64,000 nt of DNA from Candidatus Doudnabacteria bacterium (lineage in GTDB: Bacteria > Patescibacteriota > Doudnabacteria > UBA920 > O2-02-FULL-48-8), in assembly GCA_016182875.1 (NCBI GenBank), contig JACPFQ010000004.1, positions 183,556-247,555 on the forward strand, in the 5' to 3' direction. The notes below the pieces were generated by a model, which ran no database searches, was not told the origin of the DNA, and saw nothing but the letters and a program-made list of their open reading frames with translations. How positions within the stretch are numbered: the stretch's first letter is position 1; each line of letters begins with the position of its first letter. Positions 1 through 60,980 of this stretch are shown here, one piece after another. The translations under genes and the position numbers were made by a program.

Positions 1-2
1 TG

Positions 3-1073
3 TATGAAAAAGTCGTCGCCACACTTGCGACGACTTTCGTTCGGAGCGAGTCGCTGGCGCGTATTCTAGCGCTGGCATTCGAGTCGGGCAAGAACGTGCT
101 CCTCTGGGGACCAGGAGGACACGGGAAGTCGGAGATGGTTCAGGCGGCGCTCGCATGCGTCGCCGAAGAAGCGAACATTTTCGTCCAGTCCTTTGGCGAG
201 GGCATGGACGAGGCGACGCTTTGGGGTGGGTTGGACTTTGCCGCGCTGGAACGTGATAAGCGCCTAGTCTATCACCCCGAGAACAGCTTCCTCAACCGGC
301 CGTACGCCGTGTTCGAGGAAATGTTCGACGCGCCGGCCTCCGTGCTCTTGGGGTTGAAAGACACCCTGACGGCGAGGAAGCTCCGGAAGGGTTCTCAGGT
401 TTTTGCAATGAAGACCAACGTGATCATCGCGATCACGAACAAGAACCCCGACGAGTTGTCGGACATTGGTCCGGCAGCGGCCGCGCTCGTCGAGCGGTTT
501 CCGCTTCAGCTCAAGGTGGATTGGCCGTCTTATAAGTCGGCCGACTACCTGGAGTTATTCCATAAGGTCGCGCCTCGGTTGACGGGCGCTGATCTCAACG
601 GAACAACCGGCGTTCTGGCCGAGGTTATGGCCAAGGCGTCGGAGGGCGGCGAGGTCGTCTCACCGCGTACCGCGGTGCACGCGCTGGGGATCGTCAAAAC
701 CGCGGCCGCGCTGCGCGGCTCGAGCAAGGTCGAGAAATCTGATTTGCTCGACTTGACGTTTCTGCCCGGGATGGAGGCTTTCGCGGCCAACCTCCGGGCG
801 GAATTGGACGCGGCCTACGAGCGATCGCAGGCCGAAGGACGGTTAGTGGAGGCGGAGCGCAAGTTCCAGTCCCTGCTGGCCACGTTCAATGAGGCCGGCG
901 GATCGCCGGTCAAGCTGCTGCAGGTCGCGAAACGTCTGCGCAGTTTTGAGGACGAGGTAGCCGGTCTGAAAGTGACCGACAATCTCGCTGACCGGCGGAA
1001 AAAGTTGCGCGAGGTTACAGCCGAGCGCGCTGGAGCCGCCCAGCAGGCGGCATTCGACAATACCCGCATCTAG
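3..1073 (+). CDS. MoxR-like AAA+ ATPase, 5' end truncated by window edge
   Basis: Frame open from nt 3 with no stop; Walker A-like GPGGHGKS; GC-rich; followed by a vWA-domain gene, the classic MoxR-vWA pairing. Confidence 0.7.
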   Translation, partial: YEKVVATLATTFVRSESLARILALAFESGKNVLLWGPGGHGKSEMVQAALACVAEEANIFVQSFGEGMDEATLWGGLDFAALERDKRLVYHPENSFLNRPYAVFEEMFDAPASVLLGLKDTLTARKLRKGSQVFAMKTNVIIAITNKNPDELSDIGPAAAALVERFPLQLKVDWPSYKSADYLELFHKVAPRLTGADLNGTTGVLAEVMAKASEGGEVVSPRTAVHALGIVKTAAALRGSSKVEKSDLLDLTFLPGMEAFAANLRAELDAAYERSQAEGRLVEAERKFQSLLATFNEAGGSPVKLLQVAKRLRSFEDEVAGLKVTDNLADRRKKLREVTAERAGAAQQAAFDNTRI

Positions 1074-1090
1074 GCGGGAGGAGGCGTACG

Positions 1091-1744
1091 ATGTCGTACT
1101 CGTTTCGGACGTCGCCGCCTCCCACCTATCTTCCGCCGCAAGCGGAGGAGATGCGGGAAGCGGCCAGTAAGGTCGGCCTCAAGTCTTTTAGTCGGGATTT
1201 AGTGGCTGACCTCTGTAACCTGGCGGCTGGTGGGCAAGTAACTCCACCGTCAGGCTACCGCGACACGGTGCGTAGCCGTGTCGAGGAAACGCTCCCACCT
1301 AGGGATGCGAGTGGTCTCTGGTCTATTCCCGCCCGAACGGGTGGGAAGAAGTTCGGAACCATTCGTAGCAAAGACCGCCGCGAGGTGGTCGAAGTCCTGA
1401 CCGAGGAACAGATGAGGTACCACCGCAATGTCTGCGATTTCTTGCAGACGGTGGACCTTCAAAAATTCCCCGGCAATAGTCCGCTGGAGCAGGCGATGAG
1501 TTTGCTCAAATTGTTGTCGAAACAGCAGGGCGGACAGGGCGGCGGTGAAGCTGGGGAACCCCTCCCCATCTTTGCCGAAAATGAAAGACCAGAGGGGACG
1601 GCTGAAGCCCTCCATGATGTCATGGATCAGGTGGATTCGCTCTCCGAGGAAGAGCAGGACATGCTTGATCCCTCCGGCGCGAACCACCCGGTGATCCAGG
1701 ACTCACCGGAGGGCGACGGTCAGCGGACCGGGCACCATCTCCCG
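1091..1744 (+). CDS. Hypothetical protein, probably the N-terminal segment of the downstream vWA protein split by a +1 frameshift
   Basis: GGAGG RBS 5-10 nt before ATG 1091; this frame stays open to 2071 but its translation after ~1745 looks like off-frame GC-rich noise; the vWA frame opens at 1695. Confidence 0.35.
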
Positions 1745-1748
1745 CAAA

Positions 1749-2438
1749 TTGGATCAATTCACCAAGATGCAGGTTCGTCGCCAGTGTCTGGTGGAACCGG
1801 ATCCCACTGGCGAAGAAGTTCGCCAGCGTCCGATCCGGCACTTGGGAGAACTGTCTCGGGTGGCCAAACAGGAATGGGCGACGCGCCAGCAAGCGCCGAC
1901 CTACTTTTTGTACAAAGCCATCTCGGGGCAGCTCCCTGTGCGCGAGCGCGTGACGAGGGTGGAGCGCAAGCAGGCAATCTTCATCCTCGTCGATGGATCC
2001 GGCTCGATGTCGGGCAAGAAGCACTGGAAGGCAACTGGGGTCGTGATGAACCGGTTGAAGTCCGTGCTTGATGGAGACTCGGAAGTTTGGTTGTCGGTTT
2101 TTGACACCAAACTAACCAAAGTCTTCCATGCCACCAACCCGGTGGAGGCCCGCGAACTGATCAAGAAGTTCGCCGCGGGCAACTTCACCGGGGGTGGCAC
2201 TGACATCGCGGCCGCGACTAAGGCCGCGCATGACTATGTTGAGGACCAGATCCAAAAGGGTGCGGCATTATGGCGCCCGGAGGTTGTGGTCCTCACGGAT
2301 GAAGATACTTCCGTGGCCAGTCTCCGCAAGGAGATGATCCCGGGCACGCGTGTGCACGGGTTTGCCATGGAAGTGAAGAACCCCTCGCTCGTCGCGTTCG
2401 CGAAGAGCACGGGCGGGGTCGGCATGGATCAGTTTTAG
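1749..2438 (+). CDS. von Willebrand factor A (vWA) domain protein
   Basis: MIDAS motif ILVDGSGSMSG...TDG-like; TTG or downstream ATG start; partner of the upstream AAA+ ATPase. Confidence 0.7.
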   Translation: MDQFTKMQVRRQCLVEPDPTGEEVRQRPIRHLGELSRVAKQEWATRQQAPTYFLYKAISGQLPVRERVTRVERKQAIFILVDGSGSMSGKKHWKATGVVMNRLKSVLDGDSEVWLSVFDTKLTKVFHATNPVEARELIKKFAAGNFTGGGTDIAAATKAAHDYVEDQIQKGAALWRPEVVVLTDEDTSVASLRKEMIPGTRVHGFAMEVKNPSLVAFAKSTGGVGMDQF

Positions 2439-2878
2439 GAAGGAGACTGAAATGATCCGTGGTCCGCCGAAAATAACAAAGCTTTACCGGTTTTTGCTCA
2501 AAGCTCCTGCGGGAGAAACCGGTCGTGGTTACTCACGTACAAGCCCAACTCTTCGTACCAGGTAAAAGGTAATAAGCGAAGAGAGCTGACATCTCCACTG
2601 TCCCGGAGTCGGCGTTGTCGATCAATAGAAATTCGATCGACGCGTGGTTACGGCTCAGGGAGTGGCGGCCCCAATCAACCGCCGAACTTTACGCGAGTTT
2701 CTGCTTGCAGCGTAAAGAACGAGGAGTAAAATTCTCCTCTAAAGCAGGCACTTGGATTAGGAGAGAATTGGACCGCACATCCAGTTTTCTCCCTTCCTCC
2801 TAAGGTCATGAATCACGTATCACGCAACACGTATCATGGCTTTGGATGGGAGAGAATTCCAAATTGGAGGAGTTAAAC

Positions 2879-3112
2879 ATGGCGAGAGAAGTGGATTTGG
2901 ATGAACTTTTGCTGTCGCCGCGGGCCGTATTCGGATGGCTAGCCAAGGTCCGGGAATCGGCAGTCGCGCTGGAAGGTGTGAATCCGCAGTTGATTCCGGA
3001 TGAACGCGCCCGGATCAATGACGACGGCACGCTCACTATCTTCGTGGAAATCCCGGGGATAATAACCATAAGCATGGAGGTGCCGCGCGGCGATTGGGCG
3101 TATCGCCAGTGA
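2879..3112 (+). CDS. hypothetical small protein
   Basis: ORF with AGGAG RBS before ATG 2879; no recognisable motifs. Confidence 0.4.
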   Translation: MAREVDLDELLLSPRAVFGWLAKVRESAVALEGVNPQLIPDERARINDDGTLTIFVEIPGIITISMEVPRGDWAYRQ

Positions 3113-3518: not shown

Positions 3519-3627
3519 ATTTTTCCTTTCTGCCGCGGGTTAAATTCGGTAACTTTTATTTTAATCCCGGAAAATAATCCTGTCAAAAGTTGATAGTTGT
3601 TAGTTAATAGTTTATAATTTTTAAGCT

Positions 3628-3789
3628 ATGCCAGGTACTGAGAATTTGACCCGCGATTATGTTTTTATGAAAAAATCCTCAATCAAAACATATCGCGATA
3701 TAATTTTCGACCAGTCCATCACCGCCGCCGGCATGGGCTGCATGGCGGCCATGGACGCCGAAAAGTATCTGGAAATGGACCACGGCTAG
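3628..3789 (+). pseudogene. thioredoxin reductase C-terminal fragment (53 codons) carried on a repeated sequence
   Basis: Translates to ...YRDIIFDQSITAAGMGCMAAMDAEKYLEMDHG*, matching the conserved TrxB C-terminus (YRQAITAAGxGCxAAxDAEKYL); no upstream TrxB body; first ~87 bp repeated at 32429..32519. Confidence 0.5.
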
Positions 3790-3848
3790 TCGTTGCAAGA
3801 AAAAATAGCTTGTGTTAAATTATGAATAATTAAAATAAACTATGTCTT

Positions 3849-4241
3849 ATGTATACGGAGCGCGAAGGTCCAACACCCGAAGAGCTTGGTCAGACTCCCG
3901 AGGTTAGAAATCCAGTATTGGAACGATACGGACGTGAAATCAGCGGTTTGTTAATTAGGGCCAGAGAAAGATTAGATTATCTTAACAATTTTAATCTAAG
4001 CGACAAGGCAGCTAGAATTCAGGCCGCAGGCAGACTTGCTGATGAGTCGGAAGTTGCAAGCTATCAGAATATTAAACGAGGATCGGCTGTACTCACTAGG
4101 ATGATCGAAGACTTAGAATTGGCTCAGTCAGCGGTGTCTGAGGGAAGAAGTAACGTGAATCCACTAAAACATGTCGAAGATGTTATTAGAAGTGCCAGAG
4201 AAACCTGGAAACGGGAATTTGAACCACCGGATTCAAGGTAG
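3849..4241 (+). CDS. hypothetical protein
   Basis: ORF only. Confidence 0.45.
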   Translation: MYTEREGPTPEELGQTPEVRNPVLERYGREISGLLIRARERLDYLNNFNLSDKAARIQAAGRLADESEVASYQNIKRGSAVLTRMIEDLELAQSAVSEGRSNVNPLKHVEDVIRSARETWKREFEPPDSR

Positions 4242-4311
4242 CTGAAGAAAAAATTGACCGGCGCAAGCCGGTTTTGATTATGCCCCCTTCTTTGCTATAA
4301 TTTTTAAGCTT

Positions 4312-4822: not shown

Positions 4823-6067
4823 ATGCCAAGCAAAATGAATCCATTTAAATCCGCCATGCAGCAGCTGACTGAAGCGGCGGCGGTCATGAAGCTGGATAAG
4901 GAAATCCTATCAGCACTTCGCGAACCAGACCGCACCATAAACGTCAGCCTGCCCGTTCGCATGGATGATGGCCGAATAAAAGTTTTTCAAGGCTACAGAA
5001 TCCAGTACAATGACGCCCGCGGGCCTTATAAAGGCGGAATGCGCTACCATCCGCAGGTAAATATGGATGAAATAAAAGCCTTGGGTTTTTTGCAGACCAT
5101 CAAAAACGCCGTGGTCAATTTGTTTTATGGCGGCGCCAAAGGCGGGATTAGCGTTGACCCCAAAAAATTGTCCAAAGCCGAGCTTGAGCGGCTGTCTCGA
5201 ATGTTCATCCAAAGAATCGCTAAGGACATTGGTCCAGAAACTGACGTTCCGGCCCCGGACGTCAATACCGACTCGGAAATTATGGGCTGGATGGTTGACG
5301 AGTATTCAAAAATCGTGGGTAAATTTACGCCGGCCGCGATAACCGGAAAACCCTTGAGCCTCGGCGGCTCGCAAGGCCGGGAAGAGGCGACTGGCTACGG
5401 CGGCATGGTCGTTTTGAAGCAAATTCTAAAAGAGCAAAAAATCAAAAAGCTGCCGACAGTCGCCGTTCAGGGATTTGGCAATGTTGGCTACTTTTTTGCC
5501 TTATTCGCCCAGTCTTCCAACTTCAAAGTCGTCGCGGTTTCCGACTCGAAGGGCGGAATTTACTCGGCTAAAGGACTGGATGTCAGGAAGGTTCACGAGT
5601 GGAAGAAGCAAATGGGGCAGCTGAAGGGCTACCCGGGAAGCACCACCCTTTCGAACGAGCAGCTGCTTGAGCTGCCGGTTGACGTTTTGGTTCCAGCGGC
5701 CTTGGAAAATCAAATTCACAAAGACAACGCGAAAAAAATTCAGGCCAGGATTATCGTGGAAATGGGCAACGGTCCGGTAACCGCGGAAGCCGACCCGATC
5801 TTGATAAAAAGAAAAATTTTGGTCGTCCCGGACGTTTTGGCCAACTCCGGAGGCGTGGCCACTTCTTATCTTGAATGGTCCCAAAATCGAAGCGGCGTTT
5901 ACTGGTCGGAGCAGGAGGTATTGCAGAAGCTAGAAGCATACATGATTGCCGCAACCCGCAACGTTTTGTCGACTGTTCGCGAATACAAGGTCGCCGATTT
6001 GCGCACTGCGGCCTTTATTTTGGCGCTTAGGCGCATTGCTGATGCAATGCAGGCCAGAGGGCTGTAG
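4823..6067 (+). CDS. gdhA: glutamate dehydrogenase (Glu/Leu/Phe/Val dehydrogenase family)
   Basis: GGxxxGGAKGG-type motifs (FYGGAKGGISVDP), QGFGNVG NAD(P)-binding Rossmann motif. Confidence 0.9.
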   Translation: MPSKMNPFKSAMQQLTEAAAVMKLDKEILSALREPDRTINVSLPVRMDDGRIKVFQGYRIQYNDARGPYKGGMRYHPQVNMDEIKALGFLQTIKNAVVNLFYGGAKGGISVDPKKLSKAELERLSRMFIQRIAKDIGPETDVPAPDVNTDSEIMGWMVDEYSKIVGKFTPAAITGKPLSLGGSQGREEATGYGGMVVLKQILKEQKIKKLPTVAVQGFGNVGYFFALFAQSSNFKVVAVSDSKGGIYSAKGLDVRKVHEWKKQMGQLKGYPGSTTLSNEQLLELPVDVLVPAALENQIHKDNAKKIQARIIVEMGNGPVTAEADPILIKRKILVVPDVLANSGGVATSYLEWSQNRSGVYWSEQEVLQKLEAYMIAATRNVLSTVREYKVADLRTAAFILALRRIADAMQARGL

Positions 6068-7801: not shown

Positions 7802-7821
7802 AGAATTATTTTTTAATGATT

Positions 7822-7879
7822 AATTTTGAATTTTGATTCAAATTCGAATTTAAGAAATTAGAATATTCATTCGAAATTC
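7822..7879. repeat. 58-bp intergenic repeat, copy 1 (second copy 59266..59323)
   Basis: Identical aattttgaattttgattcaaattcgaatttaagaaattagaatattcattcgaaattc in both rpsF-ssb and der-LCP intergenic regions; contains two short palindromes. Confidence 0.6.
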
Positions 7880-8484: not shown

Positions 8485-9549
8485 CTACGGGTTGAACCGG
8501 AAATGGACCACGTCGCCGTCCTCAACTACGTAATCTTTTCCTTCGAGGCGGAGCCAGCCCTTATCGCGCGCGCCTGCATAGCCGCCAGCTTCGAGTAGTT
8601 TATCCCAGGCTATCACCTCGGCCTTGATAAATCCCTTTTCGAAGTCAGTATGGATGACTCCGGCAGCTTGCGGAGCTTTTGTACCCTTCACGATAGTCCA
8701 TGCCTTAGTTTCTTTTGGTCCAGCCGTGAAAAAAGTTATTAGATTTAAAAGTTTATAAGCTGCTCGAGCCAAACGGTCCAAGCCGGATTCGGTTATTCCT
8801 AGTTCTTTCATGTATTCCGCGCGCTCTTCGTCTTTGAGCTCTGCCAGTTCTGATTCGAGCTTGACGTCGATTGGAATAACCGGGCTTGACATAAAAATAT
8901 CGACCGATATTTTTATGTCATTGCTAGCATTAGCTATATAAAGTGTAGGCTTCATGGTCAGAAGCTGCAATTGCTTCACAAGACGCAGTTCTTCCTCGGC
9001 TAAAACCACTGTACGGGCAAGTTTTCCGGCTTCCAAAGAACTCTTGATTTTCTCCAAAGCATTTTTGAGTGCTATAGCCTCTTTGTCGCCGGATTTAACC
9101 TCGCGCACCAAACCTTCAAGCCGCTTGTTGATAGTAGATAAGTCCGCCAGCATCAGCTCCAGGTTGACGACCTCGATATCCCTTTCCGGATTAACCGAGC
9201 CGTCGACATGAATAATGTCCTTGTTTTCAAAAAACCGCACGACCTGAACTATCGCGTCGACTTCGCGGATATGGGATAAAAATTTGTTACCCAAACCATT
9301 ACCTTCCGCCGCCCCTTTGACCAAGCCCGCGATGTCGACAAATTCAATCGAGGTAGGAACCAGCTTTTCGGACTTCTCGAGTTTCGCAAGCTTCTCTATC
9401 CTTTCGTCAGGCACGGCAATCACCCCCACGTTCGGCTCGATGGTGGTAAAGGGAAAATTCGAGGCCGCCGCGGCCTGTTTGGTTAGAGCGTTAAATAAAG
9501 TCGACTTCCCAACGTTGGGAAGTCCAACGATGCCGACAGAGAATGACAT
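8485..9549 (-). CDS. ychF: ribosome-binding ATPase YchF (Obg family)
   Basis: GLPNVGKST P-loop, TGS-like C-terminus. Confidence 0.9.
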   Translation of the reverse strand: MSFSVGIVGLPNVGKSTLFNALTKQAAAASNFPFTTIEPNVGVIAVPDERIEKLAKLEKSEKLVPTSIEFVDIAGLVKGAAEGNGLGNKFLSHIREVDAIVQVVRFFENKDIIHVDGSVNPERDIEVVNLELMLADLSTINKRLEGLVREVKSGDKEAIALKNALEKIKSSLEAGKLARTVVLAEEELRLVKQLQLLTMKPTLYIANASNDIKISVDIFMSSPVIPIDVKLESELAELKDEERAEYMKELGITESGLDRLARAAYKLLNLITFFTAGPKETKAWTIVKGTKAPQAAGVIHTDFEKGFIKAEVIAWDKLLEAGGYAGARDKGWLRLEGKDYVVEDGDVVHFRFNP

Positions 9550-9817
9550 AATTGCTGGATTATTGTATCATTTTAACGAAAGGAAATAAATCAATGGCAG
9601 AAACAGAGTCAAGGCCGCCGATGGAAGCAAAACCGCAGCAGTCGCCTCCCCCTCCTACGCGGGAGCAGAGGAGGGAGTGGGACCGTCCAAAGCCAGGCGA
9701 GCTTGCAGATAACCCCGAACATTGGCGGGAAAAAGACTAAAATTTTGAATCAGTGCTGCGAAAGTCAAAAAGGAGCATCAGGCTCCTCCAGTTTCAGATA
9801 CTTTACAAAAAAAGGAT

Positions 9818-11314
9818 ATGACCAAACTTTATCCCTACATGTTCCGCGATTACGACGTCCGCGGAGTCGCCGGCAAAGATGCCCAGAGTTTTGACCAGAA
9901 AATAGTCGATGAGTATGAACGATGGTATGGCCCCTTTCCGGGCGTGACCCTGACCCTGGATGCCGCAGGGCTCATAGGGCAAGCGTTCGGAACCATCATC
10001 AGGAGAGAGGGTGGAAAGGAAGTGGTGGTCGGGCACGAGCTTCGGCCTTTTGCCGAAGAGCTGACCAATGCCTTCATTGCCGGTGTCCGGAAGTCAGGAG
10101 TTGCCGTGACTGACCTTGGCGTTTCGCTTACTCCGGTTGTTTATTTTGCCACGGCTTATCTCAAATTTGACGGCGGAGTGAACGTCACCGGCAGCCACAA
10201 CGTTTATTTTTTCAACGGCTTCAAGCTTATGAAAAAAGACGTTTATCCGCTGTTTGGCGAAGAACTGCAGAAGTTAAGAAAAATGATTGAAGATAAAGAC
10301 TTGATTACTGACGAGCAGGGCGATTACAAAAAGACCGACGGTTATAAAATATACAGAGAATATTTTTTGAGCCACATTAAACTCAAGAGAAAACTGAAAG
10401 TTGTTTTGGATACTGGCAACGGCAGCGCCGGCATGTTTGCCCCTGAGCTTTTAAAAGAATTGGGATGCGAGGTTATCGGATTATATACCGATGTCGACAC
10501 GAGCTTTCCCAATCACATTCCGGACCCGGAAGTCCGGCAGAGTTATGGTGAGCTTCAGAAAAAAATTGTTGAACACAAAGCCGATCTTGGGATAGCCATC
10601 GATGCAGACGGCGACCGCGTCGGATTTTTCACGGAAAAAGGAGAGTACGTCGACACCGATATGCCGCTCCTGCTTCTGGCCAAGGACGTTTTGACCCGTT
10701 ATCCGGGAAAAAAGATATTGTTTGACGTCAAATGCAGCCAACTTCTTTCCGAGTTAGTGCCTCAATATGGCGGCGTGCCTTTGATGCACCGAACCGGGCA
10801 CGCGCCAATAAAAGCCACCATGCGCAACGACCGCGAGGTGATTTTTGCCGGCGAAGTCTCGGGCCATTTATTTTTCGTGGAAGACTACTTTAAAATCGAC
10901 GACGCCTTGTTTGGCGCGGGCAAAATGCTGGAGCTGCTTTCTAAGTCCAACCAGCCATTTTCCAAACTGTTTGCGGAGTTCCCTCAAAGAGTCCGAACGC
11001 CGGAAATCAAATTGCCGTGCAGTGACGAATCGAAATTCAAGGTTGTCGAGCAAATCCAAAAAACTTTCCAAATTCGCTACCAAATTGTTACTTTGGACGG
11101 AGCCCGGATTCAATTCAGCGAGAAAGGCTGGGGACTGGTGCGGGCCTCAAACACTTCGCCTTATTTGACTATCAGGGTTGAAGCCGAAAAGGAACAGGAA
11201 GTTTTGAAAATAAAAAATATTTTGGCCGATGAACTGGAAAAATTTCCGGAAGTTGCCGATAAGCTGGATCGCTTTAACGTTGCCAGCTTAACGGGCAAGC
11301 TCGGCTGGCTTTAA
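9818..11314 (+). CDS. phosphoglucomutase/phosphomannomutase (alpha-D-phosphohexomutase family)
   Basis: Active-site TGSHN motif, GDGDR Mg-binding loop (DADGDR). Confidence 0.85.
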   Translation: MTKLYPYMFRDYDVRGVAGKDAQSFDQKIVDEYERWYGPFPGVTLTLDAAGLIGQAFGTIIRREGGKEVVVGHELRPFAEELTNAFIAGVRKSGVAVTDLGVSLTPVVYFATAYLKFDGGVNVTGSHNVYFFNGFKLMKKDVYPLFGEELQKLRKMIEDKDLITDEQGDYKKTDGYKIYREYFLSHIKLKRKLKVVLDTGNGSAGMFAPELLKELGCEVIGLYTDVDTSFPNHIPDPEVRQSYGELQKKIVEHKADLGIAIDADGDRVGFFTEKGEYVDTDMPLLLLAKDVLTRYPGKKILFDVKCSQLLSELVPQYGGVPLMHRTGHAPIKATMRNDREVIFAGEVSGHLFFVEDYFKIDDALFGAGKMLELLSKSNQPFSKLFAEFPQRVRTPEIKLPCSDESKFKVVEQIQKTFQIRYQIVTLDGARIQFSEKGWGLVRASNTSPYLTIRVEAEKEQEVLKIKNILADELEKFPEVADKLDRFNVASLTGKLGWL

Positions 11315-11836: not shown

Positions 11837-11972
11837 GCGGTCAAGACCTATCACTGCTTCGCCAAGGCTTCGCAGTGCTAGCACTGCTTAGTTTCAACGG
11901 CGTAGTGCAAGCAGTGTCCTGCGTAGCTTTCTTGTTCTTCGTAGCTTCAGCGAAGAAGAAAGCGAAGCAGGG
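11837..11972. repeat. MITE-like palindromic element flanked by 9-bp direct repeat cttatatta (11828..11836 and 11973..11981)
   Basis: Shares cactgcttcgccaaggcttcgcagtgctagca...gcagtgtcctgcgtagcttt...gcgaagcagg with 60920..60980; internal inverted repeats. Confidence 0.55.
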
Positions 11973-17254: not shown

Positions 17255-19174
17255 TTAAAGACTGGCCTTTATTTTTTCAGCCGCGGAGTTCCCGACAACG
17301 CGCGCCAGCTCTCCCAATGTCGCTTTGCGAATTTGAGCGACAGACCCAAAGGTTGTCAGCAGCATTTTTTTCTTGGCCGGTCCAATGCCTGCGATTTCAT
17401 CCAAAGTCGAGAGGCGCGAGGCTTTGGATCTGAGCTTTCGGTGATAGGTGATGGCAAAACGATGAGCCTCGTCGCGAATGCGTTGCAGCAAAAAAAGCGC
17501 TATGGAGTTAGGTTGTAAGATTAAGGATTTAGGTTGACCAGGCACAAAGATTTCTTCGAGCTTTTTGGCCAGTCCGATGGTTGCTATATTCAGGTTATAC
17601 ATATGTATAACCTTTTTAGCGACAGAGAGCTGACCCTTACCGCCATCGATGAGGATCAAATCGGGAAGGGGCCAGGTCTTGTCATTGCGAGGAGCCGCAG
17701 GCGACGCGGCAATCTCTTTCTGAGATTGCTTCGCTTCGCTCGCAATGACAGAGCGCATAAATCTACGAGTAAGCATTTCCCTCATCATGGCATAATCATC
17801 CGGCGTGTCTTGGAACTTAATCTTAAACCGCCGATAGTCTTCCTTTTTCGGCCGCCCGAAATCAAACACAATCATTGACCCAACCGCGTTTTTCCCCTGG
17901 ATATTGGAAATATCATACGCTTCGATTCTTCCGGGCAGGGTTTTCAAATTGAGGACGCGCTGAAGTTCTTTGAGCGCGCTCATGAGTCTTGCCTCCTCCA
18001 AAAGCTTCTTGTCTGACTGAGATTCCAGATATTGCTTGGCGTTTTCCTGGCCAAGTTTAATAAGCTTAAGCTTTTGGCCTTTTTTAGGCACTGAGATAAA
18101 GGGCACCTTTTTGGTAGAGAACCCTGACAGTAAAGGTGCCCTTTGTTTTACCGGCGCCAAAATTTCTTTCGGCCAGCTCGAAGCCTCCAAATAATACCTC
18201 GGCAGAAATTCGCTAAGGATTTCGGCAATGCTTGCTCCTTTAGTATTTTCAAGAATAAAATTTTCCTGGCGGATGAGCTTGCCTTCGCGGACTACAAAAA
18301 GGTTCACAGCAGCCGCTGTGGCTTCTATGTAAACGCTGAACACGTCCTGGTCAATTTTTTTTGGATAGACAAGTTTCTGCCTTTCGAGCACGCGGTTAAG
18401 CGCATAAATTTGGTCGCGGACTCTTGCCGCTTTTTCAAACAATTTGGCTCGGGCGTAGCCCTGCATCCGCAATTTTAGGTGTTTAAGAATTTCTGACTGC
18501 CGGCCCTGCAGAAATTCCATGATTTTATTTATGTAGTTTTTTCGGTACTCTTCCAAGGAGATTTTGCCTATACATACTCCCGGGCATTTGCCGATATGGT
18601 AGTAAAAACACGGATGGTTGCTGATTTTTTTGTTGCCGCAGTAAGGGAAAATTTTTCTTAGTAGCCGTAGCGTGTCTTTGATGGAAGCGCTGGAAGTATA
18701 GGGTCCGAAGTAGCGCGCCGATTTATCGGCAGATTTTCTCTCATAGCTAATCGTGGGAATTTCGTCGGCCAAATTGATTTTGACGAATAGGTAATTTTTG
18801 TCATCCCGCAGTAAAATGTTGTACTTGGGTTTGAGCTGTTTGATGAAATTGTTTTCCAGAAGCAGGCTCTCCAGCTCATTGTCGGTAACGGTGTAATCGA
18901 AATCTTTGATCTGCGTGATCATGAGCTGGATTCTCGGCGATAACTCCCCCGCTTTGCCAAGGGCTTTGTCACCCAGCCCCCGGCGGGTAGTGAGGGAGGG
19001 AGTTTCTCTTAATTTAAGAGGGGGTTGGGGGGAGTTATAAAAATGCGAACGCACGCGATTCTTAAGATTAATCGCTTTGCCGACATAAAGAACCAGCCCC
19101 TTGGCGTCTTTGAATGTATAGACACCCGGCTTGCTGGGAAGTTCTTTGATTTTGTCAGCTAGAGCTTTTTGCAT
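17255..19174 (-). CDS. uvrC: excinuclease ABC subunit C
   Basis: GIY-YIG (PGVYxFKD...LYVGKA), UvrC homology, RNase H-like/HhH C-terminus; start set at Met 19174 (the upstream 15 codons lie in a repeat). Confidence 0.9.
   Translation of the reverse strand: MQKALADKIKELPSKPGVYTFKDAKGLVLYVGKAINLKNRVRSHFYNSPQPPLKLRETPSLTTRRGLGDKALGKAGELSPRIQLMITQIKDFDYTVTDNELESLLLENNFIKQLKPKYNILLRDDKNYLFVKINLADEIPTISYERKSADKSARYFGPYTSSASIKDTLRLLRKIFPYCGNKKISNHPCFYYHIGKCPGVCIGKISLEEYRKNYINKIMEFLQGRQSEILKHLKLRMQGYARAKLFEKAARVRDQIYALNRVLERQKLVYPKKIDQDVFSVYIEATAAAVNLFVVREGKLIRQENFILENTKGASIAEILSEFLPRYYLEASSWPKEILAPVKQRAPLLSGFSTKKVPFISVPKKGQKLKLIKLGQENAKQYLESQSDKKLLEEARLMSALKELQRVLNLKTLPGRIEAYDISNIQGKNAVGSMIVFDFGRPKKEDYRRFKIKFQDTPDDYAMMREMLTRRFMRSVIASEAKQSQKEIAASPAAPRNDKTWPLPDLILIDGGKGQLSVAKKVIHMYNLNIATIGLAKKLEEIFVPGQPKSLILQPNSIALFLLQRIRDEAHRFAITYHRKLRSKASRLSTLDEIAGIGPAKKKMLLTTFGSVAQIRKATLGELARVVGNSAAEKIKASL
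17682..17750. repeat. ~69-bp palindromic element (GCGAGCGAAGCGAAGCAATCTC core) lying in frame inside uvrC
   Basis: tcattgcgag...gcaatctctttctgagattgc...ctcgcaatga; encodes ...SVIASEAKQSQKEIAAS...; same core at 30043, 57501, 28989, 32062. Confidence 0.55.
18972..19039. repeat. C-rich hairpin element (family of 13021..13099) lying in frame in the uvrC GIY-YIG region
   Basis: cccagcccccgg...ctcttaatttaagaggggg ttggggggagttat; adds ~25-30 residues (SPQPPLKLRETPSLTTRRGLGDKALGKAGE) between RVRSHF and IQLMITQI. Confidence 0.5.
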
Positions 19175-19179
19175 GGAGA

Positions 19180-19240
19180 TAGATTGCTTCGTCGGCTTCG
19201 CCTCCTCGCAAATGCGCATTCGCGAGCGGACGAAGTCCGC
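19180..19240. repeat. ~60-bp repeat, copy A (inverted copy at 23337..23400)
   Basis: tagattgcttcgtcggcttcgcctcctcgcaaatg(g)cgcat... present in opposite orientation 4.1 kb away. Confidence 0.55.
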
Positions 19241-23336: not shown

Positions 23337-23400
23337 ACTGCTTCGCTAATCGCTCGCAGATGCGCCATTTGCGAGGAGGCGAAGCCGACGAAGCAATCTA
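23337..23400. repeat. ~60-bp repeat, inverted copy of 19180..19240
   Basis: Reverse complement of gtgtttagattgcttcgtcggcttcgcctcctcgcaaatggcgcat... Confidence 0.55.
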
Positions 23401-23544
23401 AACACATGCAAAACATTTTTTCTAAACTTAGCCATCATACCAACCCTTTCCCGCTTGGAGAGGTTGGTTAGGTATGCTTTAAGAAAAATTTTTCTTCCCA
23501 ACCCCTGCAAGCCTGCCGGGGTTTTTAATTAAGCTTGATATTTT

Positions 23545-28943: not shown

Positions 28944-28988
28944 AAATTATGAGCAGACTGCCAATTAATATTGTTGGATTACAGTAAT

Positions 28989-29046
28989 TGTCATCCTGAG
29001 CGAAGCGAAGGATCTCATGAGATTCTTCACTGCGTTCAGAATGACA
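28989..29046. repeat. palindromic element (tgtcatcctgagcgaagcgaaggatctc / gagattc...gcgttcagaatgaca)
   Basis: Variant of the GCGAAGCGAAG palindromic family; supplies the spurious N-terminal codons of the grpE ORF. Confidence 0.55.
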
Positions 29047-29550
29047 AACACGAATATGTCAGACGAGAATAATCAAACCCAGGAAGCTACAGTTGAGGAA
29101 CTGCAGGCTAAGAACGAAGAATTTTTGAATAACTGGAAGCGCGTAGCGGCGGACTTGGAAAACTTCCGCAAACGCCGCGAAGCGGAGAATAAGGAATTGC
29201 TGGAATTCGCCAAGGAAATGGCGGCAATCAAGCTTCTGCCTTCCCTGCAAAGTCTGGAACAGGTCTTGAAGTTCGCGCCGAATGATGAGAAGTACAAAGG
29301 CTGGCTCGACGGCCTCAAAGCTACGATCTTGCAGCTCGAGAAGGCCATGGAAGAGCTGGGCTTGAAAAAAATCAACACGGTCGGCGAGAATTTCGACCAC
29401 GAACTGCACGAAGCCGTGGAAGAAGCGGAAGGAGAAGACGGTAAAGTTTTAAAAGAATTGCAACCGGGTTTTATGCTGCATAACAAAGTAATCATCCCGG
29501 CCAAGGTCGTGGTCGGAAAAAAGTTAAGCGATTCGAATATAGCGAATTGA
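29041..29550 (+). CDS. grpE: nucleotide exchange factor GrpE
   Basis: GrpE coiled-coil plus C-terminal beta domain similarity; start uncertain (29041 or 29056). Confidence 0.85.
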   Translation: MTNTNMSDENNQTQEATVEELQAKNEEFLNNWKRVAADLENFRKRREAENKELLEFAKEMAAIKLLPSLQSLEQVLKFAPNDEKYKGWLDGLKATILQLEKAMEELGLKKINTVGENFDHELHEAVEEAEGEDGKVLKELQPGFMLHNKVIIPAKVVVGKKLSDSNIAN

Positions 29551-30042: not shown

Positions 30043-30131
30043 TGTCTTTGCGAGCGAAGCGAAGCAATCTCATCCCGAGAAAAGAGATTGCTTCGTCGAC
30101 CGGCAATTCGCCGGTCTCCTCGCAAAGACAG
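30043..30131. repeat. 89-bp nested palindromic element in the dnaK 5' region
   Basis: tgtctttgcgag|cgaagcgaagcaatctc...gagattgcttcg|tcgaccggcaattcgccggtc|tcctcgcaaagacag, three nested stems. Confidence 0.6.
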
Positions 30132-32053: not shown

Positions 32054-32061
32054 CACGAAAG

Positions 32062-32119
32062 TGTCATCCTGAACGCAGTGAAGGATCCCATGAGATTCAC
32101 AGCGAAGCTCAGAATGACA
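32062..32119. repeat. palindromic element (tgtcatcctgaacgcagtgaaggatccc / gagattcacagcgaagctcagaatgaca)
   Basis: Same family as 28989..29046; just 3' of dnaK. Confidence 0.55.
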
Positions 32120-32130
32120 GAAAGGCTTAA

Positions 32131-32427
32131 ATGCAAAATAACCAACCGCAAAACGTCAATATCAAAATCTCAGACGAGATTCTTAAGGGCCAGTATGCGA
32201 ACATGATGATGATTACGCATACCAAAGAGGAATTTGTGCTCGACTTCATGAACGTCCTCCCGCCGCAGGGGATGGTCGTCAGCCGGGTTATCACGAGCCC
32301 CGGGCATATAAAAAGAATTGTCGCCGCACTTTCGGAAAATCTTAAAAAATACGAGGACCAGTTCGGCCAAATCGTGGAAGCGCCAACACCGTCAAATGCG
32401 GAAATAGGGTTCAAGACCCAGGGCTAA
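32131..32427 (+). CDS. DUF3467 family protein
   Basis: ~100 aa; conserved YANMMMITHTKEEFVLDF...PEHAKRLxxAL-like core. Confidence 0.55.
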   Translation: MQNNQPQNVNIKISDEILKGQYANMMMITHTKEEFVLDFMNVLPPQGMVVSRVITSPGHIKRIVAALSENLKKYEDQFGQIVEAPTPSNAEIGFKTQG

Positions 32428-32579
32428 TATGCCAGGTACTGAAATTTTGACCCGCGATTATGTTTTTCAGGTAAAGAACCCTCAATCAAAAACATATCGC
32501 GATATTAATTTTCGACCAGGCATAAGAACAGGCCTTAAGTGGTCGAATAATTAAGTCAAATTTCTAGTACCTGGTATGC
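32427..32579. mobile_element. MITE-like element with ~25-bp terminal inverted repeats; internal copy of the trxB-3'-like repeat
   Basis: Left arm atatgccaggtactgaaattttgacc (32427..32452), right arm gtcaaatttctagtacctggtatgc (32555..32579); interior 32429..32519 ~90% identical to 3628..3714. Confidence 0.5.
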
Positions 32580-33469
32580 AAAAAATTAAGATTTACTCTC
32601 TCGGCGCTGTCTGCCTGCTCTCGCTCTTGTTCGACTGGTGGCTCATCAACCTGGCTTTGTACAGCGGCAGGCCGTTGACTTTTTGGCTCTGGCCAATTCT
32701 ACTAAGCTTGGTTTGGGCCGCGGTTTTGAGTTTATTTTCCCTGGCCAACTACCAGAAGTGGCTGTTCCAAGCCTTGATTGCCGGAGGATTAATCGCCTAT
32801 CTGGCAGTCTTTCCTTCGGATAAATTTGTCTGGTTGGGCGGAATGCTGTTTTTTATCCTAGTTTACCTTTTTGAACATCGAATCAAATCGTTGGGAAAAA
32901 ACCAATCGCATTTTTCCATCAGGCACTTGGTTGGAAGCAGCATCATAATTTTGAGTTACGCGTTTTTGCTTTTATTGGGCTTCAATATTTACCATAATAC
33001 TTCGGAAGACTTCAAGCGGAATCCGGAACAGTTTTATAATCGTCTCGGAGAATCCACCGCCAAAAGCTTCCGGGCATCAGGGCGATTGGGCGAGCAGTTT
33101 AATTTCAACCAGTCACTTGACGAGTTTTTGGTCAAACAGGCAGCAGAGGAAGATCGAGGCAATTTTGATTTAACGGCTACTCGTGAGGAATTATTAAGGC
33201 GATTTGGGATTAATGCTTCCGGTTCAGAAACCCTGGCGGAAATTTTTGCTCGCGCCGCCACTGACCAAGTCAAGGATATTGCCTCCAAATACGAACGCGT
33301 CTTTCCGTTAATCTTTACGGTCGTGGTCATGGCCTTATTGCGAACGTTTGCATTTTTATTTAATTGGCTGGCGATTTTTGTAAGCTGGCTTTTGTTTAAA
33401 ATTTTGCTGGCAGTTAAGTTTTTTAGAATCAGTAAGGTGACGGTCGAAGTCGACAAGCTTGAGATTTAA
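32576..33469 (+). CDS. polytopic membrane protein, unknown function
   Basis: 6+ predicted TM helices; start codon supplied by the right TIR of the upstream element. Confidence 0.5.
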   Translation: MQKIKIYSLGAVCLLSLLFDWWLINLALYSGRPLTFWLWPILLSLVWAAVLSLFSLANYQKWLFQALIAGGLIAYLAVFPSDKFVWLGGMLFFILVYLFEHRIKSLGKNQSHFSIRHLVGSSIIILSYAFLLLLGFNIYHNTSEDFKRNPEQFYNRLGESTAKSFRASGRLGEQFNFNQSLDEFLVKQAAEEDRGNFDLTATREELLRRFGINASGSETLAEIFARAATDQVKDIASKYERVFPLIFTVVVMALLRTFAFLFNWLAIFVSWLLFKILLAVKFFRISKVTVEVDKLEI

Positions 33470-37248: not shown

Positions 37249-37902
37249 TTACTCGTCCCGCGAGTCCTTGTTGCGTCCGGCTTCCTCTCCGGGCGCGAAG
37301 AGATCGAGAAGCCCGCGCCCGCGAGCGCTTGCTTCCATCACTCTACGCTCCAGCCTTGCGTCCATTTTGTCCAGAGAAGTGGACGAGTTTGCAACTGGTG
37401 CAAGATCATGCGTTTCGAGCACCTCGCATCTTTCAAGCCAGACTAGCGCCGCATTTCGAGGGTCACTCACCCTCGTTAAATCATGTCGCGCTATAATCTT
37501 GGCTGCGTTCCGTTCCTCTCGTGGGAGCGGATAGGCTGTAGAGAGTTCCAGTGGTCGACCACCCGACTCGCAGCGAACGAACCATCCTCCTTCGTGTTTT
37601 CTCAACTCCGTTTTTTTCGTTAACGAGCGATCCTGCCGCTTGCCAACGGACCTGATTGTGTACATCCGTTTAGGCCAGTCTTCCAGACTTTTTCGGAGAT
37701 CCTGCACCTCCTGTTCTGTTGCGCTGAAGCGAAGAGTACTGTCCTCAATGGGTGGCTTTTCCGTCCCCATTTGATCGAGTATGTTCTGAGCCAGAACGAG
37801 GACTTCGTAGAAGGCAAATGGCTCTAGCCGGAGTATGTATTTTCTCCTCGTTGGCTTAAAAACGCCGACCGCGTGGTCGGTGTTTCGTTTGCGATTTGGC
37901 AA
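37249..37902 (-). CDS. GC-rich hypothetical protein (217 aa)
   Basis: ORF; first gene of two-gene operon with consensus promoter upstream. Confidence 0.45.
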   Translation of the reverse strand: MPNRKRNTDHAVGVFKPTRRKYILRLEPFAFYEVLVLAQNILDQMGTEKPPIEDSTLRFSATEQEVQDLRKSLEDWPKRMYTIRSVGKRQDRSLTKKTELRKHEGGWFVRCESGGRPLELSTAYPLPREERNAAKIIARHDLTRVSDPRNAALVWLERCEVLETHDLAPVANSSTSLDKMDARLERRVMEASARGRGLLDLFAPGEEAGRNKDSRDE

Positions 37903-55453: not shown

Positions 55454-56113
55454 ATGCCAAGTCATGGAACCCCCCTCTCCGCAACGCATTTGGCGCCGTT
55501 TGTTAGTACGGCGACCAAAGCCCTGATCCTGGTCGCGAATGATCTGGGACAGGGAGTCCAGGAAAGCTGGGCGAACCGGAGCGAAGAAATGCAGTCGCTC
55601 TTCCGCCAGGCGTTTCTGCCGCCGCAACAGACGGGCCAGCCGCTCATGGCGCGCTATATCGTGCCGATCCCGAACATCGCGGTGAACTACGACCGCAAGT
55701 TCGTGGACGCGGCAATGGCCGGTGGTCCGCAGACCCCGTCCAACTACGATGTCCTCAAAGTCGGCGACCTCTACGTCGCCCGGCACAAGGGCATCGTCCG
55801 GCGCAACATCACGATCGTGAACTTCGGGCTGGACGTCAGCTCGGAACAGGCGCAGGAGTTCGGGCAGGCGCACAAACTCGGTCGCACGCTCGATCCATGG
55901 GAGTGCTTCTCCATCGGCGAGCACCGGCCCATGCTCAATCGCGAGCTCGGCTTCGACTACATGGCCGTTGTCTCGTTGGAGAAGTGCGAGTTCGGCGGTG
56001 AGTCGCGAGTCTGCAGCTGCTGGTGGGACGAGCGGGAGCGCGAGGCCGCTCTCAACTGGTTCACCGACGGCTGGCACGTCCGCTGCTGGTTCGGTTTCGT
56101 CCGCGAGTCCTAG
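55454..56113 (+). CDS. DGR variable (target) protein; C-terminal ~38 residues encoded by VR
   Basis: C-terminus ...CEFGGESRVCSCWWDEREREAALNWFTDGWHVRCWFGFVRES lies in the VR; GC-rich (~60%). Confidence 0.8.
   Translation: MPSHGTPLSATHLAPFVSTATKALILVANDLGQGVQESWANRSEEMQSLFRQAFLPPQQTGQPLMARYIVPIPNIAVNYDRKFVDAAMAGGPQTPSNYDVLKVGDLYVARHKGIVRRNITIVNFGLDVSSEQAQEFGQAHKLGRTLDPWECFSIGEHRPMLNRELGFDYMAVVSLEKCEFGGESRVCSCWWDEREREAALNWFTDGWHVRCWFGFVRES
55989..56104 (+). repeat. DGR variable repeat (VR), 116 bp
   Basis: Gap-free alignment to TR 56439..56554 with 17 mismatches, every one at a TR adenine. Confidence 0.85.
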
Positions 56114-56438: not shown

Positions 56439-56554
56439 AATTCGGCGGTAAGTCGCAAGTCTGCAACTGCTGGTGGAACGAGCAGAAGCGCAAGGCCAAT
56501 CTCAACTGGTTCACCAACGACTGGAACGACAACTACTGGTTCGGTTTCGTCCGC
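56439..56554 (+). repeat. DGR template repeat (TR), 116 bp
   Basis: See VR; contains 30 A of which 17 differ in VR (13 A>G, 3 A>C, 1 A>T). Confidence 0.85.
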
Positions 56555-56966: not shown

Positions 56967-58043
56967 TTGGCTCATGGTTTTGACGAGATTATTTCTGTTG
57001 AGAATCTGCTCTTGGCTTGGCAAGAGTTTATCCGCGGCAAGAGGAATAAGCCGGATGTCCAACTCTTTGCTCACGCTTTGATTGATAATATTTTACAGCT
57101 TCACAATGATTTAGCCAACAAGACTTATCGGCACGGCGGATATTACCAGTTTAAGATTTCCGATCCCAAGCCGCGGGATATCAGCAAAGCCTCGGTTCGC
57201 GATAGGCTTTTGCATCATGCGATATATCGAATCCTGTATCCATTCTTTGACCGGACATTTATCGCTGATTCTTTTTCCTGCCGGGTTGATAAAGGCACGC
57301 ACAAGGCGGTCAACCGATTGCTGGCAATGTTCAGAAAAGCAAGCAAGAACAATACCCGCACATGCTGGGTTCTCAAATGCGACATCAGGAAGTTCTTTGC
57401 CAGCATAGATCATGATGTTTTGAAAAATATTTTAGCTAGACATGTTCCTGACATAGATATGCTTTGGCTTCTAGGGAATATTATTGATAGCTTTGGGTCA
57501 GATTGCTTCGTCGGCCGCCAGACTAAACCCCGGCCAGAAAACCGGCCTCCTCGCAATGACATTAAATCTGTCTTTGCGAGCGAAGCGAAGCAATCTCATA
57601 ACCAGGGTCTTCCCTTAGGCAACCTAACCTCCCAGCTCTTCGTCAACATATATATGAACGAGTTTGACCAGTTTGTGAAGCATAAACTCAAGGTTAAGCA
57701 TTATATACGCTATGCCGATGATTTTATAATTCTATCTCCAAGCGAAGAGGAACTCACTGCAATACTGTCACGTATTGCAGTACTCCTCAAGCAAGAGCTT
57801 AAACTGCGGCTTCATCCACATAAAGTCACTCTTAAAACCTTTGCTTCAGGCATTGATTTTTTAGGGTGGGTTAATTTTCCCCATCATAGAGTGCTACGCA
57901 CAGCCACGAAAAAACGGATGCTTAAGCGTATCCGTGTAAATTCAACCAATGAAACCTTGCAATCTTATTTAGGACTTTTAAAGCACGGGAATACTTTTCA
58001 AAAAATTTTCGCCAGCCCGCAGCAATGGCCGCGGGGAAGTTGA
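56967..58043 (+). CDS. DGR-type reverse transcriptase
   Basis: RT motifs: KCDIRKFFASIDH (2), GLPLGNLTSQLFVNIYMNEFD (4, DGR-specific LGNLTSQ), YIRYADDFIIL (5, YADD), GIDFLGW (7); TTG start after AGAGG RBS. Confidence 0.85.
   Translation: MAHGFDEIISVENLLLAWQEFIRGKRNKPDVQLFAHALIDNILQLHNDLANKTYRHGGYYQFKISDPKPRDISKASVRDRLLHHAIYRILYPFFDRTFIADSFSCRVDKGTHKAVNRLLAMFRKASKNNTRTCWVLKCDIRKFFASIDHDVLKNILARHVPDIDMLWLLGNIIDSFGSDCFVGRQTKPRPENRPPRNDIKSVFASEAKQSHNQGLPLGNLTSQLFVNIYMNEFDQFVKHKLKVKHYIRYADDFIILSPSEEELTAILSRIAVLLKQELKLRLHPHKVTLKTFASGIDFLGWVNFPHHRVLRTATKKRMLKRIRVNSTNETLQSYLGLLKHGNTFQKIFASPQQWPRGS
57501..57597. repeat. ~97-bp palindromic element (GCGAAGCGAAG family) lying in frame within the RT gene between motifs 3 and 4
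   Basis: gattgcttcgtcggccgcc...ccggcctcctcgcaatgaca...tgtctttgcgagcgaagcgaagcaatctc; encodes ...GSDCFVGRQTKPRPENRPPRNDIKSVFASEAKQSH... Confidence 0.5.
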
Positions 58044-59247: not shown

Positions 59248-59265
59248 TAGAAATTTAGAATTAAG

Positions 59266-59323
59266 AATTTTGAATTTTGATTCAAATTCGAATTTAAGAA
59301 ATTAGAATATTCATTCGAAATTC
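59266..59323. repeat. 58-bp intergenic repeat, copy 2 (copy 1 at 7822..7879)
   Basis: Identical sequence. Confidence 0.6.
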
Positions 59324-60844: not shown

Positions 60845-60921
60845 GGTCACTTAGCTCAGCTGGTTAGAGCGCGTCGTTCACATCGACGAGGCCGCTGGTT
60901 CGAGTCCAGCAGTGACCACCA
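60845..60921 (+). tRNA. tRNA-Val (anticodon CAC), CCA encoded
   Basis: Cloverleaf; anticodon loop TTCACAT; T-arm GGTTCGAGTCC. Confidence 0.9.
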
Positions 60922-60980
60922 CTGCTTCGCCAAGGCTTCGCAGTGCTAGCAGTGTCCTGCGTAGCTTTACGCGAAGCAGG
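60920..60980. repeat. short copy of the MITE-like element of 11837..11972, abutting the tRNA-Val 3' end
   Basis: cactgcttcgccaaggcttcgcagtgctagcagtgtcctgcgtagctttacgcgaagcagg begins within the tRNA CCA. Confidence 0.5.

Follow-up and report, generated by a model that had tools for sequence, protein, structure and literature searches.

The 53-codon open reading frame (ORF) at positions 3628..3789 of the 64,000-nt stretch of Candidatus Doudnabacteria DNA analysed here (the window) is very probably the scar of a rearrangement, in which a truncated copy of a non-autonomous transposon (MITE) is joined to the remnant of a deleted thioredoxin reductase gene, trxB. The truncated copy, copy A, and an intact one, copy B, belong to a unit of about 140 nt that is multi-copy in Candidatus Doudnabacteria and carries conserved terminal inverted repeats (TIRs) and variable 4-5-bp target-site duplications; that this unit is a MITE is well supported. 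Its link with trxB is accidental, a matter of ordinary genome decay and not of gene capture.

The complete element and its insertion site are seen at copy B:

32428..32431, + strand, left target-site duplication TATG, 1 nt past the TAA stop (32425..32427) of a DUF3467 gene
32432..32574, + strand, copy B, intact MITE of 143 nt (family profile E=9e-36, fold and alignment)
32432..32451, left TIR, 20 nt
32453..32467 paired with 32488..32501, hairpin 1
about 32501..32509, TATAAT-like box
32505..32518 paired with 32540..32553, hairpin 2
32555..32574, right TIR, 20 nt
32575..32578, + strand, right target-site duplication TATG, its ATG (32576) being the start of a 297-aa membrane-protein gene (32576..33469)

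The two TIRs of copy B are complementary at 17 of 20 positions, and the element folds into a Y shape made of an outer stem and two hairpins (dG -57.3 kcal/mol, z = -7.8); the opposite strand folds nearly equally well (z = -6.9). The first-pass annotation of this DNA had described near-perfect 25-bp TIRs, the right one providing the ATG of the next gene. The TIRs are there, at a length of 20 nt, the rest being the 4-bp direct duplication TATG, and the ATG comes from this duplicated target. Excision of copy B together with one TATG gives GGCTAATATGCAAAA, i.e. the DUF3467 stop and then, closely, the ATG of the next gene, and copy B is an intact insertion at TATG between that stop codon and that start codon. 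Within the window the 20-mer CCAGGTACTGAAATTTTGAC, with up to 3 mismatches, has three sites, at 3631(+), 32432(+) and 32555(-), and none in 100 shuffles; a family profile built without copy A likewise finds exactly two copies, the full one at 32432..32574 and a partial one at 3631..3717. A 24/27-nt match to the MITE core at 37478..37505 falls in an ORF rich in GC and was put down to chance. Rfam gives only three tRNAs for the whole window at the gathering threshold, and in E-value mode the best sub-threshold match of copy B scores 20.2 bits against a cut-off of 45, with no family assigned. Logan contigs end inside both TIRs of copy B, as is expected where an assembly meets a repeat, and these breaks imply more copies in the source population. 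For two family copies, orthologues of the flanking genes occur without the element (L051, L019), at a divergence that does not allow an empty site to be read to the base, and neither window copy yielded a clean empty site. REP-like palindromic intergenic repeats built on GAGCGAAGCGAAG (e.g. TGTCATCCTGAGCGAAGCGAAGGATCTCATGAGATTC...) occur in the window at 28986-29047, 32059-32119, 17718-17752, 30043-30073, 57567-57601 and 19167-19214 / 23366-23413; one such palindrome sits 310 nt upstream of copy B, in the gap from dnaK to the DUF3467 gene.

Distribution of the family was followed by scanning one genome per species, and then metagenomes, with the end motif CCAGGTACTRRRAWTTTGAC. Family elements start with the left end CCAGGTACTGAAAATTTGAC and have 20-nt inverted ends whose tips begin 5'-CCAGG. 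Inverted paired matches 117-142 nt apart occur on many contigs of Candidatus Doudnabacteria metagenome-assembled genomes (MAGs), with at least 8 copies on 8 contigs in the MAG JACQJI01, and further paired ends come from JACQHB01, from a MAG with the label Saccharibacteria and from several JGI/ENA metagenome contigs. The non-redundant set comprises 16 elements from Candidatus Doudnabacteria MAGs and groundwater metagenomes, with full copies of 135-143 nt. After the copies had been oriented by the slight asymmetry of their ends, perfect 4-5-bp target-site duplications were read in 13 of the 16, in nine different sequences (TATG four times, AAAA twice, and CATG, CTTGA, TTGA, TATAA, CAAA, TTAG and CAAG); one duplication is imperfect, and one element has none. 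The first-pass proposal of a MITE-like mobile element is upheld by this multi-copy family with its conserved TIRs and variable duplications, and by a candidate autonomous insertion sequence (IS) described below.

Among 14 aligned copies the 20-nt ends are invariant or nearly so, and helix 1 is 99.2% paired, with 16 of its 19 pairs never varying. Hairpins 1 and 2 covary, pairing being kept via compensatory changes (95.4% of cells paired in the 14 copies); 13 double-changed pairs were observed against 2-4 in slid controls, and the observed covariation score was reached by 0 of 500 shuffles. Covarying internal hairpins of this kind are not required by a purely selfish MITE. Reading frames that start at the duplicated ATG vary in where they stop and encode unrelated peptides, with no conservation among copies. 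Two size variants were noted, a 338-nt copy in JACQJI01 (L035, 6530-6867) with insertions in both hairpin loops and a 78-nt miniature in a Staskawiczbacteria MAG (L017, 29-106) that adjoins another right-end-like sequence.

Copy A and the sequences to either side of it are composed as follows:

3590..3618, + strand, sigma-70-like promoter TTGATA-17-TATAAT, 11/12 consensus matches, 9 nt upstream of the ATG at 3628, a leaderless-type spacing
3627..3630, + strand, TATG, presumed to be the left member of the target-site duplication at copy A; TATG is also duplicated in 4 other family members, and the ATG here starts the fusion ORF
3628..3789, + strand, chimeric ORF of 53 codons, MITE-derived N-terminus and TrxB tail; hypothetical protein HYV13_02605 in the source MAG annotation
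3631..3714, + strand, copy A, truncated MITE (nhmmer, family profile positions 1-89 of 140, E=3.6e-19, match span 3631..3717)
3631..3650, left TIR of copy A, retained, as are hairpin 1, an internal TATAAT at 3699..3704 and, of hairpin 2, the 5' arm
3708..3714, + strand, breakpoint and microhomology CGACCAG, from copies A and B aligned with the trxB 3' ends of L037, L038 and L039
3712..3789, + strand, trxB remnant, last 25 codons and stop, QSITAAGMGCMAAMDAEKYLEMDHG

Only the 5' 84-88 nt of the element are present at copy A, without the remainder of hairpin 2 and without the right TIR. The segment 3627..3716 recurs at 32428..32522, including identical blocks of 15 and 22 nt. As to its recurrence, the repeat of about 87 nt noticed earlier is therefore real; as to its content, it is pure MITE sequence. 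The description of the two sites as a duplicated thioredoxin-reductase 3' fragment does not hold, the TrxB-like part being confined to 3712..3789 and trxB being absent from copy B and from every other family member. Upstream of copy A, the layout TATAAT-N5-12-start codon is one that at least 8 genes in the window have, and it also lies to the left of other MITE copies inserted at YATG start codons. Boxes of this type 5-12 nt upstream of long-ORF starts were noted in the window at 4296, 7069(-), 13002(-), 42374(-), 43147, 55290(-) and 60715(-), among others. From this spacing, many genes of the organism seem to be leaderless or nearly so. The region upstream of copy A has no similarity to the regions upstream of folD, trxR and trxB in relatives. 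A duplication of the DUF3105 promoter into the left flank was considered and dropped, the common part being a 19-nt promoter/start motif only.

Further to the left, window positions 1-3100 form a block of 55-61% GC with MoxR-like AAA+ and VWA genes, and the relatives do not have this block at this position. An indel near 1737 leaves the window 68 nt shorter than Logan contigs L001 and L002, and the 471-aa VWA gene is thus in two frames. A RelE-like toxin gene lies just past the left window edge, in L001. PADLOC and PHROGs searches of this island gave no defence match, only weak phage-like ATPase matches and the RelE-like toxin match.

The product of the 53-codon ORF is MPGTENLTRDYVFMKKSSIKTYRDIIFDQSITAAGMGCMAAMDAEKYLEMDHG. 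Similarity to TrxB is limited to residues 29-53, with 19 of 21 positions identical to metagenomic TrxB C-termini, while residues 1-28 have no relatives; homologues of the whole 53-aa sequence are the ORF itself and short TrxB C-terminal fragments. The earlier observation of a TrxB C-terminal tail lacking its body was confirmed: tblastn with E. coli TrxB and with a relative's TrxB matched at 3694..3786 only and found no TrxB body in the 64-kb window. There is no Pfam match to Pyr_redox. Functional TrxB has FAD/NADPH-binding domains (Pyr_redox_2) and a CxxC redox centre, both absent here along with some 280 codons, and the remnant, equivalent to residues 282-307 only, therefore cannot be a functional TrxB.

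Synteny was anchored on the neighbouring DUF3105 gene (window 4312); the 130-aa ORF downstream of the tail was dropped as an anchor, being an orphan. In three related Doudnabacteria the gene order is folD, a trxR-like gene, trxB, DUF3105, GDH, cupredoxin, EF-P(-) and SSB(-), and the window matches this order from DUF3105 onward. An intact 307-aa trxB stands at this position in all three relatives and nowhere in the window, and folD and the trxR-like gene were likewise not found within it. The 307-aa TrxB of one relative (L038) ends in QAITASGMGCMAAMDVEKYLEMDHG, i.e. ...EKYLEMDHG and stop, which is exactly the ending of the remnant. From the syntenic position and this common ending, the tail is therefore an in-situ remnant of that trxB. 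The 130-aa ORF (window 3849-4241), with no homologue but itself among 5.8 billion proteins, occupies the trxB-DUF3105 spacer, which measures 25-105 nt in the relatives. Given this orphan and the MoxR/VWA island (60% GC) on the left, more than one rearrangement has occurred at the locus, and the ancestral state of the copy A locus, including the size and content of the deletion and the original gene of the promoter, cannot be rebuilt. A second DUF3105 paralogue (50% identity) lies on the same 327-kb contig outside the window (L040-L042), in a thiol-redox/metal cluster with glutaredoxin, DsbD-like, AhpC/TSA-like and DSBA-like genes and a P-type ATPase. This second locus was searched for a replacement trxB and none was found.

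At the junction the MITE reads TTCGACCAG followed by GCAT, and the trxB of the relatives reads TACCGCCAG followed by GCCAT. Over a longer stretch the MITE sequence is CGCGATAT(T)AATTTTCGACCAG and then GCATAAG, and the trxB sequence is CGCGATTATCGCTACCGCCAG and then GCCATTACC. Copy A switches from MITE to trxB at CCAG (3711..3714), inside hairpin 2, a signature of microhomology-mediated deletion or illegitimate recombination. The best explanation is that copy A first inserted at TATG where a gene behind a leaderless-type promoter began, as the family pattern suggests, and that its 3' part was later lost by deletion or illegitimate recombination; the junction itself is observed, and the mechanism is the probable one. 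The end points of the deletion would lie in hairpin 2 of the MITE and near codon 282 of trxB, at the CCAG microhomology, and the event would have removed folD, the trxR-like gene and about 280 trxB codons, all present in relatives. What remains, the 53-codon ORF, is a fortuitous in-frame fusion without TrxB function.

Three other accounts of copy A and its relation to copy B bear on this reading. That a mobile element took up the 3' end of a trxB, or arose from such an end, so that trxB-like sequence would be part of the repeat, was proposed in the first-pass annotation and is now very unlikely. It would account for MITE sequence and trxB tail lying in one ORF at copy A, and there is a short resemblance near the junction, CGCGAT..CGACCAGGCAT in the MITE against CGCGAT..CGCCAGGCCAT in trxB. 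This resemblance, however, spans 6 + 9 nt and is microhomology rather than ancestry; similarity to TrxB begins only past the breakpoint, the family profile has no match to the intact trxB of the relatives (the database included L037-L039), and trxB sequence occurs in 0 of the 14 aligned full copies, all of which run on from TTCGACCAG through hairpin 2 into the right TIR. A further account would treat the two copies, which repeat about 88 nt in direct orientation with about 90% identity, as attL/attR-like boundaries of an integrated element or island of 28.8 kb. The spacing and shared orientation of the copies around core genes are as first reported, but they have no structural meaning, since copies of this family are normally co-oriented with local genes. 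The interval contains core genes (GDH, EF-P, SSB, tRNA-Leu, DnaK), its first 5 kb or so (DUF3105 to SSB) follows the gene order of the relatives, the repeat is a member of a dispersed MITE family, and copy B is complete with a target-site duplication of its own; such a boundary role is extremely improbable. The third account makes the copy A junction an assembly chimera at a repeat; repeats do interrupt assemblies, and copy B is a place where Logan contigs end. Against this, seven Logan contigs, each from a different sequencing run, carry 3601..3800 without a difference and extend past it on both sides, and the chance of an artefact is close to nil.

A candidate for the autonomous partner of the family, the single example found, is a 1,513-bp element at 8608..10120 of the metagenome locus L063. 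It has the left end (8608) and the right end (10120) of the MITE family, sharing its terminal 15-20 nt overall and, at the right end, the terminal 15 nt, and is flanked on both sides by CTTGA, a 5-bp duplication. Its 401-aa ORF matches the ISNCY transposase model NCBIfam NF033594 (E=4.5e-117; 391 bits, cut-off 250), with weaker IS481 and IS21 matches and an N-terminal HTH; read by eye, a DD pair lies in the interval from the first to the second presumed catalytic D, and a Q follows the presumed catalytic E at a distance of seven residues. The first 137 nt of the element are a complete MITE module and not a simple IRL, the right end holds three direct repeats of TAGAAATGTC, and the element may be a MITE-IS composite moved as a unit. 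The box GCTATAAT sits upstream of the transposase gene, for which it may be the promoter. A DDE transposase of the ISNCY family, IS1202/IS481-like, such as this one, whose gene lies between the same ends, probably mobilises the MITE in trans. No ISNCY-type transposase is present within the 64-kb window, a PDB sequence search with the L063 transposase gave no match, and viral contigs yielded one stray TIR match and no relative of this transposase. Solo TIR matches in MFEL01 (L022, L031), examined as possible IS ends, have no transposase there. REP/REPIN elements have no target-site duplication and are mobilised by a RAYT (IS200/IS605-like) transposase; identity with them was rejected for the MITE, which has target-site duplications and whose candidate transposase is an ISNCY enzyme of the DDE type.

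Placement of the copies relative to genes is biased. Thirteen of 15 copies have the orientation of the gene downstream (two-sided binomial p ~0.007), the right end abuts a start codon from a YATG duplication in 5 of the 15, and in 10 a co-oriented start lies at most 55 nt away. Most copies carry GCTATAAT between the hairpins, reading toward the downstream gene, the same box as in native promoters, e.g. the DUF3105 promoter in four genomes. This bias in orientation and start codons could stem from target choice or, equally, from selection for insertions that restore a promoter. Counts of G-U versus A-C give no strand-specific RNA signal (2 vs 6 in hairpin 2). An upstream-ORF or translational-coupling role was rejected, since stop positions differ between copies. 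These features bear on an alternative in which the unit would be mainly a host-selected structured element (an RNA leader, or a regulatory or DNA-level structure) and not purely selfish, which on the sequence evidence is unlikely. The three-helix fold with compensatory changes, the co-orientation and start-codon figures, and the conserved box pointing at the gene and matching native promoters all argue for it, but variable duplications and unrelated flanking genes show arrival by transposition, Rfam has no match, both strands fold equally well, and the base-pair counts carry no strand signal. It is moreover compatible with the MITE explanation, to which it would add a layer without displacing it.

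Rather unlikely is the idea of a mobile promoter/5'-leader cassette that would insert preferentially, in one orientation, at the start codons (YATG) of leaderless genes and swap the promoter-to-AUG contact for the GCTATAAT promoter and a structured leader. Were this so, the cassette would rewire expression in the very compact Doudnabacteria genomes, and the hairpins would be kept for their role in the leader. A different small inverted-repeat element (AATCCCGTTAGAAA...TTTCTAAACGGG) was noted at L037 (~5935-6000) and at L051 (~320-420, - strand), where it abuts the ATG of the DUF3105 gene and of an MBL-fold gene, respectively; more than one small element of these genomes lies exactly at start codons.

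For annotation, HYV13_02605 is best regarded as a MITE-trxB fusion scar and not as a gene. The Doudnabacteria population appears to have lost a trxB copy with its folD and trxR-like neighbours from a conserved locus, a loss of relevance to redox and one-carbon metabolism where the genome is reduced, and a MITE copy can evidently be the end point of a gene-deleting rearrangement. The family would also document an active MITE/IS system in CPR bacteria, and its orientation and start-codon bias points to possible promoter delivery by a MITE, a concept known from Correia and other elements. Other repeats of the window are a 70-nt AT-rich repeat (93%) at 7810-7879 and 59254-59323, a 114-nt direct repeat (86%) with copies 450 nt apart at 55991-56104 and 56441-56554, and a 35-nt hairpin-like repeat (97%) at 11852-11886 and 60920-60954, which at one of these two sites overlaps tRNA-Val at its 3' end.

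A literature search gave no description of MITEs, or of a MITE/IS system, in CPR/Patescibacteria, and a survey of 183,232 genomes makes no mention of CPR/Patescibacteria lineages or of ISNCY/IS1202. The family appears to be undescribed, yet an ordinary kind of element. Among insertion sequences, the IS1202 family, formerly ISNCY, in particular its ISAba32 subgroup, and the IS481/IS3-like DDE elements are closest to the L063 element, by its length of 1.5 kb, its single ORF with a match to NF033594 and a weaker one to IS481, and its N-terminal HTH. The DD pair and the Q read by eye in the L063 ORF are features reported for the IS1202 family (bioRxiv 10.1101/2022.12.17.520857). The tips of that family are 5'-TGT, whereas those of L063 and the MITEs are 5'-CCA, and the L063 element is therefore not filed as IS1202 proper. 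Duplications in the ISAba32 subgroup are 5-6 bp; those of L063 and two MITEs are 5 bp, and those of most MITEs 4 bp. Unlike in the IS1202 family, no Xer/dif-like target is evident for the MITE/L063 system. Orientation-specific target choice is known for the ISAba32 subgroup and may be compared with the orientation bias of the MITE.

Among bacterial MITEs, Neisseria Correia, pneumococcal RUP, MITEAba12 and Coxiella QMITE1 are alike in a size of ~100-150 nt, TIRs and short duplications, and in being non-coding, multi-copy and mostly intergenic, often immediately upstream of genes. A sigma-70-like -10 box, which the Doudnabacteria MITE also has, is reported for Correia and MITEAba12, and promoter-bearing MITEs just upstream of genes are already known from these same elements (review PMC10969869). 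The Doudnabacteria MITE differs from the known ones in its unrelated sequence and its host lineage (Doudnabacteria; CPR/Patescibacteria), and in a duplication of variable sequence and 4-5 bp, not TA. In further contrast to them, its interior consists of two separately covarying hairpins within the TIR stem, and one third of its copies sit exactly on a start codon by way of the YATG duplication.
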